A stretch of DNA of 64,000 bases from Escherichia coli 042 (GCF_000027125.1 NC_017626.1); one strand, 5' to 3'. Numbered from the stretch's first letter, positions 19,078 to 54,617 are shown. Notes: a model not told the origin generated them from the letters alone. Program-made: numbers and translations.

Positions 19078-19215
<138 letters not shown>

Positions 19216-48147: not shown

Positions 48148-48223
48148 GCCGATATAGCTCAGTTGGTAGAGCAGCGCATTCGTAATGCGAAGGTCGTAGG
48201 TTCGACTCCTATTATCGGCACCA
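48148..48223 (+). tRNA. thrW: tRNA-Thr (anticodon CGT)
   Basis: GCCGATATAGCTCAGTTGGTAGAGCAGCGCATTCGTAATGCGAAGGTCGTAGGTTCGACTCCTATTATCGGCACCA; cloverleaf with CGT anticodon and 3' CCA. Confidence 0.95.
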
Positions 48224-48224
48224 T

Positions 48225-48503
48225 TTAAATCAATAAGTTACACATAATTAGTACCTTCCTTTTTTTTGACTGGGACAAATTTGGGACCGATGGGTTCAGG
48301 ACTGAGTCTATTTGCCGTGCGTGTTCGGTAAGGTGATTAGGCGCGAGGTGAGCATATCGACGAACCATTTCGATAGACTCCCAGCCTCCCATTTCTGAAA
48401 ATGCAAGAAGAGAAACACTGGACTGAACCAGCCTGCTTGCCTTTGCTATCAAAGTACCTTGAAGGCCAGATGATTTCTGGCGATATTTACAGCGCTTCCG
48501 CAA
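48225..48503 (-). pseudogene. 3' remnant of a P4-type tyrosine integrase gene abutting thrW
   Basis: C-terminal integrase signature [32 protein letters not shown] with the catalytic-Tyr RRYAHL motif; no N-terminal or core domains upstream. Confidence 0.75.
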
Positions 48504-48585
48504 TGAGTTTTTCTCTGTGCCGCCAGAGGCGTTCCCCGCTTTTTCAGCACCGCAATAATGTCGGCGGAATGCCAGTCCTGTTGCA

Positions 48586-49056
48586 TCATGCGGCCACCTC
48601 GCTGATAAATTTTACGCCGTCGGCGGTACGCAGCCAGCGTGGGGCTTTGAGTCCTTCCGTGAAATACCAGACCAGCTCACACAGCAGCCCGGTCAGGGTT
48701 TGCTCCATTTTTGGTTCCGCCGGACGTTCCAGCAGAAGCTGGAGTAGTGCGAGGCAGTATTCGCACAAGGAATCAGGTTCGGAAATAAAGTGCTCTGGTG
48801 TGGCGGGAAGGGTATCCACGGTCAGGCTTTCGGTAAGATGCGGTGGGATGGGGTCGTGTAGTGTGGGTTGCAGTAGCGCAAGAGCCGCGTGAAGCCGCCC
48901 GCAGAGCGCCAGTCGTAGCGCTGGATCGTCGGTTTCAATCAGGGTTTCGGCAAAGCGGGCGCAGTAGTCAGCAAGGACAGTGAAATCCGTGGTGGCATTG
49001 AAGGGGACGGTCAATAGATCGAGTAAATCGCTGTCAGTGGTGAGGATTGTAGCCAT
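48586..49056 (-). CDS. Hypothetical 156-aa protein, function unknown
   Basis: Acidic Leu-rich ORF with GGAGG ribosome-binding site 8-12 nt upstream of the ATG; no motif recognised. Confidence 0.55.
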
Positions 49057-49059
49057 AGG

Positions 49060-49260
49060 GCAACCTCCGATAAGTGGGTGTTCAAGCCACCACCGGAGAG
49101 GCTAATCTCGCGGGTGGTGGAACCGGGCAGGGTTAGCCTTACCAGCCTTATCGGACACTGGCGCGTCTTGCGACGCCCCCGCCCGGCCCACCATTGAGAT
49201 GTAACCGTGCGAACAACACAAAAAAAGACGCTGGCGCGTCATGTGTCGCCGATAAGATTT
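49060..49260. repeat. Cluster of degenerate REP-like palindromic units and hairpins
   Basis: GACACTGGCGCGTCTTGCGACGCC (49155-49178) and GACGCTGGCGCGTCATGTGTCGCC (49227-49250); CCGATAAG/CTTATCGG three times; 8-bp inverted repeat CCACCACC/GGTGGTGG (49087-49094/49113-49120); minus-strand GACGC-loop-GCGTC hairpin followed by T7 (49221-49241). Confidence 0.65.
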
Positions 49261-49402
49261 CTTCAGGAGGCTAATCCCGACGCCTGATTTTGCAGGCGCG
49301 GGAGAAAGATACTGCGATTGGTCATGAGTGGCAAGGGCTACATCATGTTTACCGACATCTCACGCAAAAATACCCTGATTATTAATAGCGAAAATCAGTT
49401 TC

Positions 49403-52400
49403 TTATTTTGGCGGTAGCTTTTTGCGGTTCTTTGCCAACTGGAATCCTTCAGGTAACGGTTTGAATTTATCGCCGCCTTTAGGCCAGCGTTTTGCCCTGC
49501 TCTGAAATGCCCTTAACGAGTCGATATCCAGCGTTGCAGCGACCACAAAGTCATTATCACCGCCCTTCACACGAGCAATATCACGCATAAAGGGTTCTTT
49601 TGCCGGGGAACGTACGCGACTATCGCCGTATTTTCGGTTATTCACTAAAATAGTATAGGCATGAATATCCAGCGCTGCTGATTCAATCAACGATGCAAAC
49701 GTATCTAGATCTTTATTCCAGCTCAATACCATTAATGCATCGAGTGCGCCCTGAAAACGGATCCTCGCTTTACTATTCTGGAGTTCAGAGCAAATCATAA
49801 CGCCAAAATTGACGCCGTGATGAATATATACCGGCTTACGTTGTTTAACATTAAGTGTCGAATCCCAAGACTTACCATAAGTTGAAAATAATGCCTCATC
49901 TTCACCTACGGCGGGTTCCAGCTTGGGTTGCCATATTTTGACACTCGCTGGATAGCCGAGTCTGTTATCTGAAAGGACAAGTACGGCCTCACTCTTCAGT
50001 TGATTATCGTCTAAGTGGCGGTATTCTGTTCCCGCAATTAGACTGATACCCGCCGAACTCAAACGATCAGCAATACTGTTAACCCAGCGTAACGGGATTG
50101 AAAGCTCAGGGAATAAAACATAATCAGGTTTAGGAGATAGTTTCAATGTTGCATTAACCAGTTCAGAAATCCGCTGGTACCTTGAACGGGACAAGTTAGA
50201 TTTATTGCAGGCCATTTTAGCCCAGTCGTCCTCCTCTGTTTTAATGCTGGTTAGCGCAACGACAACTTTATGTTTCCTGTCTGTGCCAATATGAATGAAT
50301 TTCTTAGGCCGAGCTTTTTTTGTCGCTTCATCTGAGTCCTGCTCCGATGCTAGCAACGTCGGTTTGATCCATACTCCGCGTAATGCTTGAGTATATTTTG
50401 CCCAAATGGTGGACGGTCTCTCATCTGGTTTTTTGTCGGATGTGGAGGGTAATCCAACACATTCGGGGGCCAGTTCTGATATTTCAGCGGGTGTTAAAGG
50501 ACGTGTAGGGAAAATGTAAGGTAGGTAACTTTCGTTCTTACGATTTCCTTTAGCCACTTTTTCCAGTCGGGTATTCTTGGTTGATTTCAAAAATAGCTTA
50601 ATAACGTCAATATCAATAAGCGATGAGTCGCTCATTAATTTCAGTATTTTAACTTCTTTTTTACTATCACGCTGATTAACAAGTTTTTCTGCCGACTGAC
50701 TCTTTACGATCTGTTTATAAGGTTCCTTTGCTAAATCAGCTCGAGCTACCAATGGCGCTTTTAAATAAAAATCTGCTGAATCAAAGCGAAGATCCAGTAA
50801 ATCCTTTAGATTCGTCAGACTTTGTGAAATATGATTAAAAAATGTATCCGCAAGGCACTCTTCTTTCTTTGAACGTTTATCAAGAAATAATCTGTCAGGA
50901 CTGTAATATCGTGTCGCTGCATCAACAAATAGCCAGCTTAATGTGCCTTTTATACAGCGCCAAAGATCATTTACTGCTCGAGTTTTGCAACCATTTATAT
51001 TCACTTCCTTACCTGAAGTAATCACCGATGCCAACAGGTTGATGGATTCGTAAGCTTTAAGTACAATTTTTTCCGCGTGCTGCCATTCATTCATACTGAT
51101 AGCAAAGCCAAGCAGCCTTGGCAGATAACTAAAATGTGCAAATAGATTATCAGCCCTAAGAATATGGTTGTAGGCAAACTGATAAAACTCTTCCCGCTGT
51201 TCTTTCCATTCACTTGGAGGCAGATCTCGTGCCAGTGTTTCAACGTAGCGTAATTGCAGTGACCAGCCCAAACGACGAATGGTTAATCCATCCGCACGGC
51301 GCAGAGTATCGGCATTTTCACCTACACTACCGGCAGCGGAAAGGACTTTAGCTGCGGTGGAGTGTTCCAGTTGATCCGGTGAAGGCATCAAGCGGTGTTC
51401 ACTAGAAAGCTCGTAGATCTCCTTTTCGATACTGTCGAGCAGGTCTATTCCAGCCCTCCCTTGAAGCACGAAAAGTTTTTGCTTATCGGATTGTAACTGG
51501 ATGGTGGTCTTACCCTGGAAATGCTCGCCCTGCTGTATTTGCCATATTTGTTTTTGCTCGTTTTTCAAATAAACGCAATCATTGCCAAGCCTATCTTGCA
51601 GCAATAACATAAATTCGTGATTATTAGTAATTGTCCCTGTATCGCGTATTACAAGGAACATATCATCGACATAACGACCGTAGTGAATTGGTGATAGTTT
51701 TTCAATGACTAATTTATCCCAATGGTGTAGCAATATATTTGAAATGATCCGACTGGCTGTTAATCCAATGACCAGACCACCATTAATAACAGGTGTTTTG
51801 TACGCTATTTTCTTTCCAAATGCCGCTGCGCCGTCAGACCAGTGCTTTAAGAATACTGCTAACTGTGCAGTAAACGCTTTTTCATCCTCAGTCAGTTTTA
51901 TGTTTAGTGTGTTATAGAGATCATCAGAGGTTATAGCCAGTGGATCAATAAAATGATAGTAACTTTTTAAATCCAGTGAGGCGGCGATAATGTCACGATC
52001 TTTTTCCAACTCGTCACGTATAGCTTTTAAGCCATCACCACGCCATTTTTGGTAGGGCTGGAAGTAGGGGCTAAAAGAACCCACGGCACTGATATGGAAT
52101 GGATTATCCTGCTCATTGCTAAATAATTCATCATTACGAATACGCTTTAGCCGCGCGCCATAGCAACAGTTATCTAAGCTGGCATCAAATTTATGCCCGA
52201 CCATGTTAATCCATAGTGCAGAGATAATGTGACTATCAACCGGGAAGTCACCAATAATACGAAACTCTGGTATCAGATCAAAATTATTAAATAAATGGTC
52301 GGCTGCTCGTTTAGGATTAGAAAAGTGGACGTGTCCATTTTGGGATTCATGTTTTTTCTTTGTGGTTAATTTTTTCGGTAACAAACGAAATTTGCCAATC

Positions 52401-52612
52401 AACTTCTTATTGCTACTGAATCCATCTTCGCTCTGCAAAAGATCTAAGAGTTTTTGCAGGTTTTCAAGTAATTCCTGCTCATACTCGGCAAATTTGATAG
52501 CAACAGGAAATGTATTCTCAAAGAAGCTATCGGCTTTTGCTTTCCGGTAAGCGACCAGAAGGTCTTCAATCGTCAGATCATCCCAGCCAGTGAAAATTGC
52601 CTGATATGTCAT
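49403..52612 (-). CDS. Reverse transcriptase fused to a C-terminal nitrilase-family domain (DRT type 1-like)
   Basis: 1069-aa ORF; RT motif A-like LDLKSYYHFI, motif C YGRYVDDMFLV; C-terminal nitrilase-like Glu in YVLFPELSIP and Cys in GVMICSE. Confidence 0.8.
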   Translation of the reverse strand: MTYQAIFTGWDDLTIEDLLVAYRKAKADSFFENTFPVAIKFAEYEQELLENLQKLLDLLQSEDGFSSNKKLIGKFRLLPKKLTTKKKHESQNGHVHFSNPKRAADHLFNNFDLIPEFRIIGDFPVDSHIISALWINMVGHKFDASLDNCCYGARLKRIRNDELFSNEQDNPFHISAVGSFSPYFQPYQKWRGDGLKAIRDELEKDRDIIAASLDLKSYYHFIDPLAITSDDLYNTLNIKLTEDEKAFTAQLAVFLKHWSDGAAAFGKKIAYKTPVINGGLVIGLTASRIISNILLHHWDKLVIEKLSPIHYGRYVDDMFLVIRDTGTITNNHEFMLLLQDRLGNDCVYLKNEQKQIWQIQQGEHFQGKTTIQLQSDKQKLFVLQGRAGIDLLDSIEKEIYELSSEHRLMPSPDQLEHSTAAKVLSAAGSVGENADTLRRADGLTIRRLGWSLQLRYVETLARDLPPSEWKEQREEFYQFAYNHILRADNLFAHFSYLPRLLGFAISMNEWQHAEKIVLKAYESINLLASVITSGKEVNINGCKTRAVNDLWRCIKGTLSWLFVDAATRYYSPDRLFLDKRSKKEECLADTFFNHISQSLTNLKDLLDLRFDSADFYLKAPLVARADLAKEPYKQIVKSQSAEKLVNQRDSKKEVKILKLMSDSSLIDIDVIKLFLKSTKNTRLEKVAKGNRKNESYLPYIFPTRPLTPAEISELAPECVGLPSTSDKKPDERPSTIWAKYTQALRGVWIKPTLLASEQDSDEATKKARPKKFIHIGTDRKHKVVVALTSIKTEEDDWAKMACNKSNLSRSRYQRISELVNATLKLSPKPDYVLFPELSIPLRWVNSIADRLSSAGISLIAGTEYRHLDDNQLKSEAVLVLSDNRLGYPASVKIWQPKLEPAVGEDEALFSTYGKSWDSTLNVKQRKPVYIHHGVNFGVMICSELQNSKARIRFQGALDALMVLSWNKDLDTFASLIESAALDIHAYTILVNNRKYGDSRVRSPAKEPFMRDIARVKGGDNDFVVAATLDIDSLRAFQSRAKRWPKGGDKFKPLPEGFQLAKNRKKLPPK

Positions 52613-52906
52613 GCGTTATCGTCCTTAGATTACAGTCTGTACAGAATTAGCCAGCCGTTTCATGCCCGAAGGGGGGCTCTTGACACCAGTAATCCATCAG
52701 TGAGGCTGGCAATAATTTTGATTTGTATCCATGTTACACGCTCCCCGCAACCAGTCCGAGCATATATTTGTCACATTTTTCCCGAAAGTGATTAAGTTTG
52801 AATTTTTTGTTTAATGTCGATTTTTAGTCGACAAAATGAGGAATAAGTAAACTATTTCTTGCTGTGGCGTATCCCTGAATCTACACTGGTTTAAATATTT
52901 GTACTA

Positions 52907-53710
52907 ATGTCTATTCAGAGGCGACAGTTGCCAAACTATCTAAACTGGCTGATGCAGCACACGCTACCCGGCCAGGTGCTGCTCCAGTCATGGCTTACCC
53001 GCAACGGCATAGATCGTAAGCTCTCTTATCTCTATGTGAAGAATGGCTGGCTCAGGCGGATCGCTCACGGCGTATACTGCCGGACGGGCCGTGAGCCGGA
53101 TTGGGTAGACGCGGTTTACTGCCTTCAAACACAGTGGGAAAAGCCTGTTCGGGTGGCGGGGCTAACCAGCCTTGCGCTTCAGGGCCATGCGCACTATACC
53201 GAACCGGGTAAGCCGCAGGTCTGGCTCGCGCTTCCGGCTTACGTTAAGCTGCCGGGATGGTTTGCTGCCTTCGAACAATCTGCAACATTTATCACGCTGT
53301 ATACATCGGGGCTTACCGTAGATGTAACGTCATTGACTACGGAACTGAAAATTGGCGACCGCCAGTTAGCAGGCAGTGCCCCGGAACTGGCCGCGTATGA
53401 GATCGCCTGCGGCGTTCCTTCGTTGATATCGTTCGAACATGCCGATGCTCTGTTTCAGGGGATGAATCTTCTCAGCCCGCGTAAATTGCAGGCGTTACTC
53501 TGCGCCAGTCATTCGGTTAAAACCAACCGGGTGATGCTTTACCTTGCCCGGCGTAATGGACACCCTTATTTTCAGTATCTTGATCAAAGCGGTATAGAAA
53601 CAGGTACGGGAAAGCGGCAAATCATACCTGGTGGCTGGCTGGAGCCGGATTATCAAATTACTGTTCCACGCGAATTTAAACCGGAAGGAGTCGAAGATGG
53701 ATCTGCGTGA
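52907..53710 (+). CDS. AbiEi-like antitoxin/transcriptional regulator
   Basis: 267-aa ORF immediately upstream of, and overlapping by 14 bp, a DUF1814-type nucleotidyltransferase gene; assigned mainly by that pairing. Confidence 0.6.
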   Translation: MSIQRRQLPNYLNWLMQHTLPGQVLLQSWLTRNGIDRKLSYLYVKNGWLRRIAHGVYCRTGREPDWVDAVYCLQTQWEKPVRVAGLTSLALQGHAHYTEPGKPQVWLALPAYVKLPGWFAAFEQSATFITLYTSGLTVDVTSLTTELKIGDRQLAGSAPELAAYEIACGVPSLISFEHADALFQGMNLLSPRKLQALLCASHSVKTNRVMLYLARRNGHPYFQYLDQSGIETGTGKRQIIPGGWLEPDYQITVPREFKPEGVEDGSA

Positions 53711-54617
53711 TAGCTATACCCGGCAGGTCAAACTGTTGATGGACGCTCTGCCGCATGTGGCGAAGGAGTCCGGTTTCGCATTAAAAGGCGGCACCGCAAT
53801 CAATTTGTTTGTGCAGGATTTTCCCCGTCTGTCGGTGGATATCGATCTGGCGTATAAGACTTTTGCGGATCGCGATACCGATTTGACGGCGATCAACGAC
53901 GCTTTGAAGAGAATTACTGCATCGCTGAACAGTAAACCGGGGATTACCGCGATTCGGCAGGAAAATAAAACGGATGAAAAGCGCATCATTGTGAATACGG
54001 CTGATGCCCAGATTAAGATCGAGGTTAGTCCGGTCTGGCGTGGGCTATTGTTGCCTCCGGCAGAAATGTCGGTGTGCGAACGTGTGGAAATGGAGTATGG
54101 CTTCACCACTATGAGTGTCGTTTCGCTGGCGGATCTTTATGGCGGTAAAATCTGCGCAGCGCTTGATCGTCAGCACCCGCGCGATCTGTTTGATGTGCTG
54201 AATATGCTGGAGAAACCGGGACTGATGCGGGAGATCTTTGACGGTTTTCTTTGTTATCTGGCAGGCCATCCCCGCCCCATTGCCGAGTTGCTGGCTCCAA
54301 ACTGGGATACAGAGCGGATCACGACGCTGTATGCTCAGGAATTTTCGGGGATGACTCAGCAGGAAACGTCGCTGGAATCGCTGCTGTCAGTAACGACTTT
54401 GCTGCCGCAGGCGTTGAAGTCACATCTTACGGATCTGGATCGCGAGTTCTTGCTCAGTTTTAAGCAAAACAGCCCTGACTGGTCGCGGTATCGCTATCCT
54501 GAAATTCAGCATCTTCCGGCTATTCGCTGGAAGCAACGTAATCTGGCGGTGCTGAAAGATAAAAATCCGGCGAAGTATGTGGCGGCGGTGAATAAGCTAG
54601 AGAGGGTGCTGGCGTAA
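53697..54617 (+). CDS. AbiEii-like nucleotidyltransferase toxin (DUF1814)
   Basis: 306 aa from ATG 53697 (MDLRDSYTRQ); nucleotidyltransferase signature FALKGGTAINLF...RLSVDIDLAY. Confidence 0.75.
   Translation: MDLRDSYTRQVKLLMDALPHVAKESGFALKGGTAINLFVQDFPRLSVDIDLAYKTFADRDTDLTAINDALKRITASLNSKPGITAIRQENKTDEKRIIVNTADAQIKIEVSPVWRGLLLPPAEMSVCERVEMEYGFTTMSVVSLADLYGGKICAALDRQHPRDLFDVLNMLEKPGLMREIFDGFLCYLAGHPRPIAELLAPNWDTERITTLYAQEFSGMTQQETSLESLLSVTTLLPQALKSHLTDLDREFLLSFKQNSPDWSRYRYPEIQHLPAIRWKQRNLAVLKDKNPAKYVAAVNKLERVLA

Follow-up and report, generated by a model that had tools for sequence, protein, structure and literature searches.

Does a reverse transcriptase (RT) that is joined to a nitrilase in one polypeptide protect Escherichia coli 042 against phages, and, if so, to which of the known families of defense RTs should one assign it? 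The question is raised by a gene at positions 49403..52612 (minus strand) of a 64,000-nucleotide stretch of this genome (NC_017626.1), which we refer to as the window. A first-pass annotation, made from the sequence alone, had described the product as an RT with a nitrilase domain joined to it and called it DRT type 1-like; the RefSeq label of the protein is merely "RNA-directed DNA polymerase" or "hypothetical protein," and a literature search with the accession WP_000222103, which did not extend to the UG5 list of Mestre et al., found no match. Here, we argue, at a probability of about 0.85, that the gene encodes a single-polypeptide anti-phage defense enzyme of UG5-large, a group within class 3 of the UG/Abi RTs that was named DRT11 in 2025.

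The gene and its two domains

The gene consists of one open reading frame (ORF) that starts with ATG and encodes 1069 amino acids (aa) plus a stop codon, as seen in the ORF listing of the window and as the first-pass annotation had it. A Shine–Dalgarno-like AAGGA lies a few bases 5' of the ATG, and the G+C content is 0.39-0.45 over the gene as against roughly 0.50-0.56 in the flanks, as expected of horizontally acquired DNA. Four motif strings had been quoted in support of the two domains, and all can be located by residue (LDLKSYYHFI at 213, YGRYVDDMFLV at 311, FPE at 834, and GVMICSE at 937); they are not chance matches, since the catalytic residues are invariant in a family alignment of 65 relatives at 27-76% identity. 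The parts of the gene, with the evidence in brackets where it is specific to the part, are as follows:

49403..52612, minus strand: complete RT-nitrilase gene, assigned to the UG5-large group of class 3 UG/Abi defense RTs (ORF, PADLOC, DRT11 alignment, and AlphaFold2 model)
51383..52612, minus strand: RT domain, about residues 1-410 (invariant residues, fold matches, and profile matches)
51971-51973, minus strand: codon of Asp214 in motif A
51662-51673, minus strand: YVDD box, residues 314-317
51401-51403, minus strand: codon of the invariant Ser404, in the RT part (65-sequence alignment)
50303..51382, minus strand: mostly alpha-helical middle region, about residues 411-770 (secondary structure and per-residue confidence of the model, pLDDT)
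49493..50302, minus strand: nitrilase-superfamily (C-N hydrolase) domain, about residues 771-1040 (Foldseek and invariant tetrad)
50105-50107, minus strand: codon of Glu836 of the tetrad
49922-49924, minus strand: codon of Lys897 of the tetrad
49901-49903, minus strand: codon of Glu904 of the tetrad
49790-49792, minus strand: codon of Cys941 of the tetrad
49406..49492, minus strand: conserved C-terminal tail, residues 1041-1069 (equivalent of the domain-swapped "lid" of DRT1)
49442-49462, minus strand: lid motif K1051-P-L-P-E-G-F1057
52613..52906: divergent intergenic region of 294 bp between the RT-nitrilase gene and abiEi, presumed promoter region

Across the 65 relatives, the invariant residues of the RT part are D214 in motif A and Y311, R313, Y314, D316, and D317 of the YVDD box. 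In the nitrilase part, they are E836, K897, E904, and C941, and position 943 is always Glu or Asp. The spacing of K897 and E904 would fit the second Glu of the Cys-Glu-Glu-Lys tetrad of nitrilases, as in amidase structures such as 2plq.

The first-pass annotation had named the failure of profile searches to detect both domains as grounds for abandoning the fusion, and Pfam-A alone would lead one to do so, as neither RVT_1 (PF00078) nor CN_hydrolase (PF00795) was found in the protein at E <= 10; the UG/DRT family profiles, which it had also proposed, do detect them. When the 65 relatives are searched at E <= 0.001, RVT_1 is found in 47 of them and CN_hydrolase in none, and the RT matches of the 042 protein in NCBIfam are all sub-threshold, with no DRT model close to its cutoff. 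We attribute the silence of Pfam to poor sensitivity for a divergent clade because the evidence from family profiles, from the fold search, and from aligned residues is consistent.

The family profiles in question are those of PADLOC, in which residues 783-1058 match the model for RT-associated nitrilases (RTasNitrilase) at 147 bits and residues 15-413 match RT_UG5_small at 133 bits, in addition to the full-length match described below. The AlphaFold2 model, built from the 65-sequence alignment, has a mean pLDDT of 87.9 and a predicted template modeling score (pTM) of 0.91, with a low-confidence loop at residues 430-438, that is, after the invariant Ser404. Foldseek against the PDB places nitrilase-superfamily amidases, carbamoylases, and nitrilases at the top with a probability of 1.00 (6ypa, 4lf0, 2plq, 6lcg, 3ivz, and others, at E of about 1e-7 and template modeling scores to the target of 0.5-0.67), followed by the RTs of a diversity-generating retroelement (DGR), DRT9, AbiA, UG15/DRT4, and DRT2 and by group II intron RTs; the family profile also matches Drt3a, retron, and DRT2 RTs over the RT domain. 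Both domains are thus confirmed, and the fusion proposed in the first-pass annotation is borne out by PADLOC profiles, by the modeled fold, and by alignment to characterized relatives.

UG5-large, DRT11, and DRT1

Class 3 of the UG/Abi RTs comprises UG1, UG5, and UG29, and UG5-large is the form of UG5 in which RT and nitrilase are fused, a large protein with a non-catalytic extension between RT and hydrolase (PMC9226505), an extension represented here by the helical region (about residues 411-770). In UG5-small, the RT and the nitrilase are separate genes, whereas the 042 gene joins them in one polypeptide. The PADLOC model RT_UG5-nitrilase (PDLC03780) covers residues 1-1068 of the 042 protein at 1034.3 bits (E = 0), and the validated DRT11 scores 1015.7 bits on the same model.

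DRT11 is the UG5-large RT-nitrilase WP_040120558.1 of Sinorhizobium meliloti RMO17, carried on pSymA; it gives protection against phages that depends on the multiplicity of infection, loses defense when either the RT (DD296-297AA) or the nitrilase (C876A) is mutated, and works without a noncoding RNA (ncRNA) or a transmembrane (TM) partner (bioRxiv 10.64898/2025.12.16.694600). BLASTP aligns it collinearly with residues 13-1067 of the 042 protein at 30% identity (E = 6e-145), and, in the pairwise alignment, Y294-D297 of DRT11 correspond to Y314-D317, K833 to K897, C876 to C941, and E878 to E943. The two are therefore alike in their end-to-end architecture, the YVDD box, the Lys, the Cys, and the Glu two residues beyond the Cys, and each is a single gene. 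They differ in that DRT11 is 64 residues shorter, resides on an alphaproteobacterial megaplasmid rather than in an enterobacterial tRNA islet, and has been assayed on rhizobiophages only.

The name DRT type 1 refers to the UG1 family, which is said to have been described by Gao et al. in 2020. By family profile, DRT1 is indeed the best solved relative of the 042 protein (PDB 9yfd, E = 1.1e-28), and the profile hits its RT and its nitrilase separately, with the catalytic Glu, Lys, second Glu, and Cys1116 all aligned. To see both domains in DRT1, one has to go beyond a single-sequence phmmer search of the PDB, whose alignment to DRT1 took in only about the last 120 residues, to a profile search, and the equivalences of the nitrilase Glu and Lys should be taken from the HMMER alignment, as the addition of DRT1 with MAFFT --keeplength misaligned both regions. 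The single-sequence search nevertheless sets D316/D317 opposite D324/D325 of DRT1 and C941 opposite C1116, which are the positions mutated in the DRT1 knock-outs (PMC13275509). Every residue whose mutation kills defense by DRT11 or DRT1 is kept in the 042 protein, namely D316/D317, C941, E836/K897/E904, and Lys1051.

DRT1 acts by abortive infection and needs both RT and nitrilase activities, has an alpha-helical repeat domain where the 042 protein has its helical region, and has a TM neighbor, drt1b, beside about 18% of drt1 genes (PMC13275509). What the two proteins share is membership of class 3, the order of RT, helical region, and nitrilase, and the catalytic and lid residues. DRT1 differs as a separate family, in its length (1229 aa, so that the 042 protein is 160 residues shorter), and in its priming on Ser402, which stands in a T-S-S context, and filaments have been shown for DRT1 alone. 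The PADLOC models of Drt1a match the 042 protein only in part (PDLC03745 over residues 151-409 at 89 bits and PDLC02171 over residues 940-1045 at 34 bits). The description "DRT type 1-like" therefore holds as a resemblance that extends over both domains and fails as a family name, for on its sequence the protein is UG5-large in the sense of DRT11, a member of the sister family of DRT1/UG1 and not UG1 itself.

The second validated relative comes from E. coli itself. The "RT-nitrilase + 1TM" system of strain E101, which sits in a P4-like satellite, has been validated in phage defense (Rousset et al. 2022, PMC9122126), and its RT-nitrilase is called "DRT5L" in Neville et al. 2026. The two proteins have in common that they are UG5-large proteins of E. 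coli borne by P4-like satellites, with the catalytic motifs and a C-terminal K-x-x-P-x-G-F; the E101 protein belongs to another subclade, is about 947 aa long, and is only about 26% identical to the 042 protein over the RT half. In DefenseFinder, we take the E101 system to be the one named Rst_RT-nitrilase-Tm. Searched with its first 399 residues, the E101 RT has PDLC02995 as its best model, with 879 bits, whereas the 042 protein matches this model only partially and at 188 bits.

The E101 RT is paired with a 229-aa protein with one TM segment (RTasTM, clusters 85/1858), and its defense was measured at room temperature. A tblastn search with this TM protein against the whole 64-kb window gave a best E of 8.4, that is, no RTasTM homolog, and a hydrophobicity scan of the islet described below returned only out-of-frame or antisense pieces of known genes. 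As there is neither an RTasTM homolog nor a credible hydrophobic ORF, we regard the 042 locus as the single-gene form.

The thrW islet and the loci of relatives

The gene lies in an islet of 6.4 kb that extends from tRNA-Thr(CGT) to a junction at about 54607. The tRNA, the integrase remnant, and the AbiE genes that had been named as its neighbors were all found, and the features of the islet other than the RT-nitrilase gene are as follows:

48148..48223, plus strand: tRNA-Thr(CGT), thrW, integration site and left border of the islet (ARAGORN; Rfam tRNA, 71.8 bits)
48228..49312, minus strand: rump of a P4-like satellite (PHROG, RefSeq, and Rfam)
48228-48503, minus strand: C-terminal fragment of an integrase (PHROG integrase families; integrase pseudogene in RefSeq)
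48586-49056, minus strand: 156-aa ORF, WP_000201185.1, hypothetical
49110-49198, minus strand: C4 antisense RNA (Rfam, 71.1 bits)
49221-49299, minus strand: isrK, Hfq-binding small RNA (Rfam, 68.8 bits)
49260-49312, minus strand: c4 a1/b1 target (Rfam, 43.8 bits, just below the gathering score)
52907-53710, plus strand: AbiEi antitoxin (PADLOC, 264.7 bits; RefSeq)
about 53697-54617, plus strand: AbiEii nucleotidyltransferase toxin, in an ORF open from 53631 (PADLOC, 384.2 bits; RefSeq)

RefSeq adds a helix-turn-helix (HTH) pseudogene beside the integrase fragment and an ash-family remnant that overlaps the C4 antisense RNA region. At positions 49110-49312, the decayed islet has retained the immunity region of a P4/P1-type element. 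The 156-aa ORF, WP_000201185.1, has no match in PADLOC, NCBIfam, or PHROG; its G+C content of about 0.55 is above that of the RT gene, and it is presumably derived from the satellite. The 294-bp intergenic region contains no Rfam family, no ORF of at least 40 aa, and no strong promoter consensus.

The window holds no second copy of the 3' end of the tRNA, and long direct repeats on either side of the islet are likewise absent; decay has gone too far for the element to be delimited by its attachment sites, and the right junction was therefore set by genome comparison. It falls at the stop codon of AbiEii, at about 54607, beyond which genomes of E. coli without the islet match again. In strain 98232, an unrelated, integrase-bearing, phage-like element occupies the same junction, beside a ykgR remnant and a truncated copy of a LysR-family gene, and the interval between thrW and ykgR is thus a variable integration hotspot. 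We infer that the islet is the rump of a P4-like satellite whose defense cargo outlived its mobility functions.

How widespread is the gene? Of 5426 complete E. coli genomes, 260 (about 5%) have it at 99% identity or more, nearly always on the chromosome, and most of the E. coli copies among those listed are identical in sequence. Orthologs about 1067 aa long, with identities of roughly 70-82%, are known from Salmonella, Citrobacter, Yersinia, Vibrio, Marinobacter, Alteromonas, Idiomarina, and many metagenomes, and a library clustered at 50% identity yields 2013 relatives; a phage genome collection yielded no homolog. Two records labeled as plasmids carry the gene, NZ_CP146678.1 ("plasmid unnamed3" of E. 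coli MS 69-1) and CP088862.1. The one inspected, NZ_CP146678.1, has the chromosomal neighbors paoD, LysR, AbiE, and pinE of e14 and no replicon or mobility typing, and it is probably a mis-binned or duplicated chromosomal segment.

The genes upstream of the RT-nitrilase differ between relatives. In four enterobacterial loci, Kiwa-like KwaA and KwaB follow a type I restriction-modification (R-M) operon. This cassette is constant in Salmonella, Citrobacter, Yersinia, and one metagenome contig (L002, L003, L007, L008, and L009; positions 1-6000), where hsdR-hsdM-hsdS, a 184-aa KwaA-like gene, and a 277-aa KwaB-like gene are separated by 12 nt from the RT start, with an integrase adjoining. In Marinobacter (L005, 4492-5995), it is PDC-M59A/B, a candidate pair of defense genes of which one encodes a Fic-domain protein, that precedes the RT gene inside a Tn7-like transposon, and in Vibrio anguillarum (L004, 4238-6004), where the RT gene lies inside a P4-like element (AlpA and DUF927), the gene of a 588-aa PtuA/AriA-like ATPase overlaps the RT start by 4 nt.

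One might be tempted to regard such upstream genes as dedicated partners, and we considered and rejected them as such, for they are other defense systems and differ from genome to genome. As the upstream gene varies, we see in the RT-nitrilase a self-contained module that collects in defense islands. The first-pass annotation had seen a defense island at the 042 locus, and this description is upheld both by the thrW islet itself, with its P4-like remnant and AbiE, and by homologs beside type I R-M, Kiwa, PDC-M59, and Tn7.

AbiE deserves a separate word. An AbiEii/AbiGii-like gene adjoins DRT11 in its variable region (bioRxiv 10.64898/2025.12.16.694600), as the AbiE pair adjoins the 042 gene. 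AbiE is absent from the seven other homolog loci. That AbiE stands beside the RT-nitrilase is probably a coincidence of co-location in defense islands, and a functional coupling between the RT-nitrilase and the divergently transcribed AbiE pair seems to us far-fetched.

Elsewhere in the window, and unrelated to the RT-nitrilase, Rfam identifies naRNA4 (CssrE, nucleoid-associated ncRNA 4) at 19083-19159 on the plus strand, with 78.4 bits, above the gathering score.

Weighing other explanations

The alternative that deserves the most attention, though we consider it unlikely, is that the locus is an incomplete system of the E101 type that has lost its membrane effector and is inactive. The islet is visibly decayed, its satellite remnant is of the P4 type, and the P4-borne UG5-large system of E101 is reported to need its TM partner (PMC9122126, PMC9226505). 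The E101 RT is, however, from the other subclade (879 as against 188 bits on PDLC02995, and 26% identity over the RT half), and the searches of the 64-kb window and of the islet yielded no RTasTM homolog and no credible hydrophobic ORF, respectively. Such a gene lies downstream of only 31 of 299 UG5-large members (PMC9226505), there is no conserved downstream gene in the loci of seven other relatives, and DRT11, which is recognized by the same PADLOC model as the 042 protein, works alone (bioRxiv 10.64898/2025.12.16.694600). Decay might also have reached the gene itself, leaving an intact-looking ORF without function: the adjoining integrase, HTH, and ash genes have become pseudogenes, copies that are frameshifted or disrupted by an insertion sequence (IS) are found in individual strains, and the E. 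coli copies are so nearly clonal that selection within the species cannot be measured from them. We hold this to be very improbable. The 3.2-kb ORF is uninterrupted with all its catalytic residues in place, the majority of the E. coli copies listed do not differ from one another, and full-length orthologs at about 70-82% identity exist across many genera, which is what one expects of a protein under purifying selection and not of a pseudogene.

There is even less to be said for a bona fide DRT type 1 (UG1) system. DRT1 is the closest solved structure, shares the domain order, and aligns in both domains and in the lid; against this, the Drt1a match is confined to residues 151-409 at 89 bits when RT_UG5-nitrilase reaches 1034 bits over the full length, NCBIfam has no DRT model near its cutoff, UG1 proteins are 1200-1300 aa long (PMC9226505) rather than 1069 aa, and the priming serine of DRT1 is not conserved. 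The least probable reading of all is that the enzyme is the RT of a group II intron, a retron, a DGR, or an ncRNA-dependent class 2 DRT for which the adjacent RNAs serve as template. It would account for the position of C4 and isrK within 100-300 nt downstream of the RT stop codon, and the RT fold does resemble DGR and retron RTs. However, C4, isrK, and a1/b1 are known as RNAs by which P1/P4-type elements confer immunity, and C4 and isrK are absent beside the RT gene in three other loci (Salmonella, Vibrio, and Marinobacter), which suggests that both are part of the satellite rather than of the RT system. The Rfam search of the region gave neither a group II intron nor a retron msr/msd nor a DRT ncRNA, and genes for a maturase, an endonuclease, or DGR accessory proteins are missing. 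Nor does DRT11 depend on a flanking RNA, and DNA synthesis by class 3 enzymes proceeds with RNase A present.

UG5-large in the sense of DRT11 remains our assignment, and a number of points weigh against its reading as a self-sufficient defense enzyme that works as its relatives do. The protein shares just 30% of its residues with DRT11 and, in the RT half, about 26% with DRT5L of E101, so that any statement on phage specificity, on activity in E. coli, or on independence from partners would be extrapolated from such relatives. The reported need of the E101 system for its TM partner (PMC9226505) means that self-sufficiency is not universal in the family. The copy in MEI003 (L001, 7304-10509) is split into two coding sequences by a frameshift, and that in WP9-S17-ESBL-11 is interrupted by an insertion of the IS5-family element ISKpn26, so that selection for the gene is not absolute. 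Ser402 of DRT1 falls opposite Leu408, which is not a conserved residue (in an approximate alignment, with a DRT1 sequence obtained by optical character recognition), and the DRT1 paper itself calls S402 non-conserved in other class 3 DRTs. Finally, the mechanism of filament and lid is established for DRT1 only, which is another family (PMC13275509).

Lid, priming serine, and proposed mechanism

The C-terminal tail resembles that of DRT1. Among the relatives, F1050, K1051, P1052, P1054, G1056, F1057, and R1063 are conserved, and K1051, P1054, G1056, and F1057 stand opposite K1219, P1222, G1224, and F1225 of DRT1, while the position of A1223 in DRT1 is taken by Glu1055. In DRT1 filaments, the nitrilase site is closed by a lid made of the last 19 residues of the neighboring protomer, and either K1219A or deletion of the tail abolishes defense (PMC13275509). 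As the lid motif, K-x-x-P-x-G-F, is kept in the 042 protein and also in DRT11 and DRT5L of E101, a DRT1-like gating of the nitrilase is plausible for UG5-large by analogy.

A priming residue is harder to name. Four residues from the position of Ser402 lies Ser404, in the string S-S-E-H-R-L-M-P, which is invariant in the 65 relatives and present in DRT11 and in DRT5L of E101 as well; the family motif, S-S-E-[H/W]-R-L-[L/M]-P, is found at the end of the RT thumb helix. We propose Ser404 as a candidate priming site for UG5-large, and as nothing more.

With these elements, a mechanism can be sketched, all of it by analogy with characterized relatives. The RT, without an RNA template, would use a side chain of its own as primer and make short, semirandom, single-stranded DNA (ssDNA) that stays covalently attached. 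UG5-large has one enzyme shown, in 2026, to make DNA in such an untemplated, protein-primed way, and class 3 enzymes do so despite RNase A. The DNA adducts may then drive oligomerization through the nitrilase domains, which would complete the nitrilase active site and at the same time shut it under the C-terminal lid of the neighboring protomer, giving a dormant, pre-armed state. In DRT1, it is adducts of about 17-30 nt that cause tetramers to assemble into dormant filaments (PMC13275509). During infection, a phage replication factor would perturb the dormant state; DRT1 needs a phage ssDNA helicase, T4 Dda, for its activation (PMC13275509). Phages that escape DRT1 map to the same helicase. 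The freed nitrilase could hydrolyze an essential C-N compound and so bring about growth stop or death before phage release, that is, abortive infection.

What, then, does the 042 gene add? It is not new in kind: the RT-nitrilase family has already been cataloged, profiled, and validated in two other hosts, UG5-large having been cataloged in 2022 and included in the PADLOC models, with phage defense shown in E. coli E101 (2022) and in S. meliloti (2025). The annotation "RNA-directed DNA polymerase" or "hypothetical protein" can be corrected, and about 5% of complete E. coli genomes can be said to carry a single-gene class 3 DRT at thrW. For the questions that concern the class as a whole, the nitrilase substrate and the phage trigger, the gene offers a native, partner-free E. 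coli member.

One may go a step further and suppose that the 042 protein stands for a widespread and unusually conserved gammaproteobacterial clade of UG5-large without TM partners, about 70% identical between Vibrio and Yersinia, which primes on Ser404, rather than at the Ser402 position of DRT1, and regulates its nitrilase with the lid. We put this forward tentatively and think it more doubtful than probable. Were it true, a single native E. coli gene could be the most tractable system in which to find the substrate of the nitrilase.

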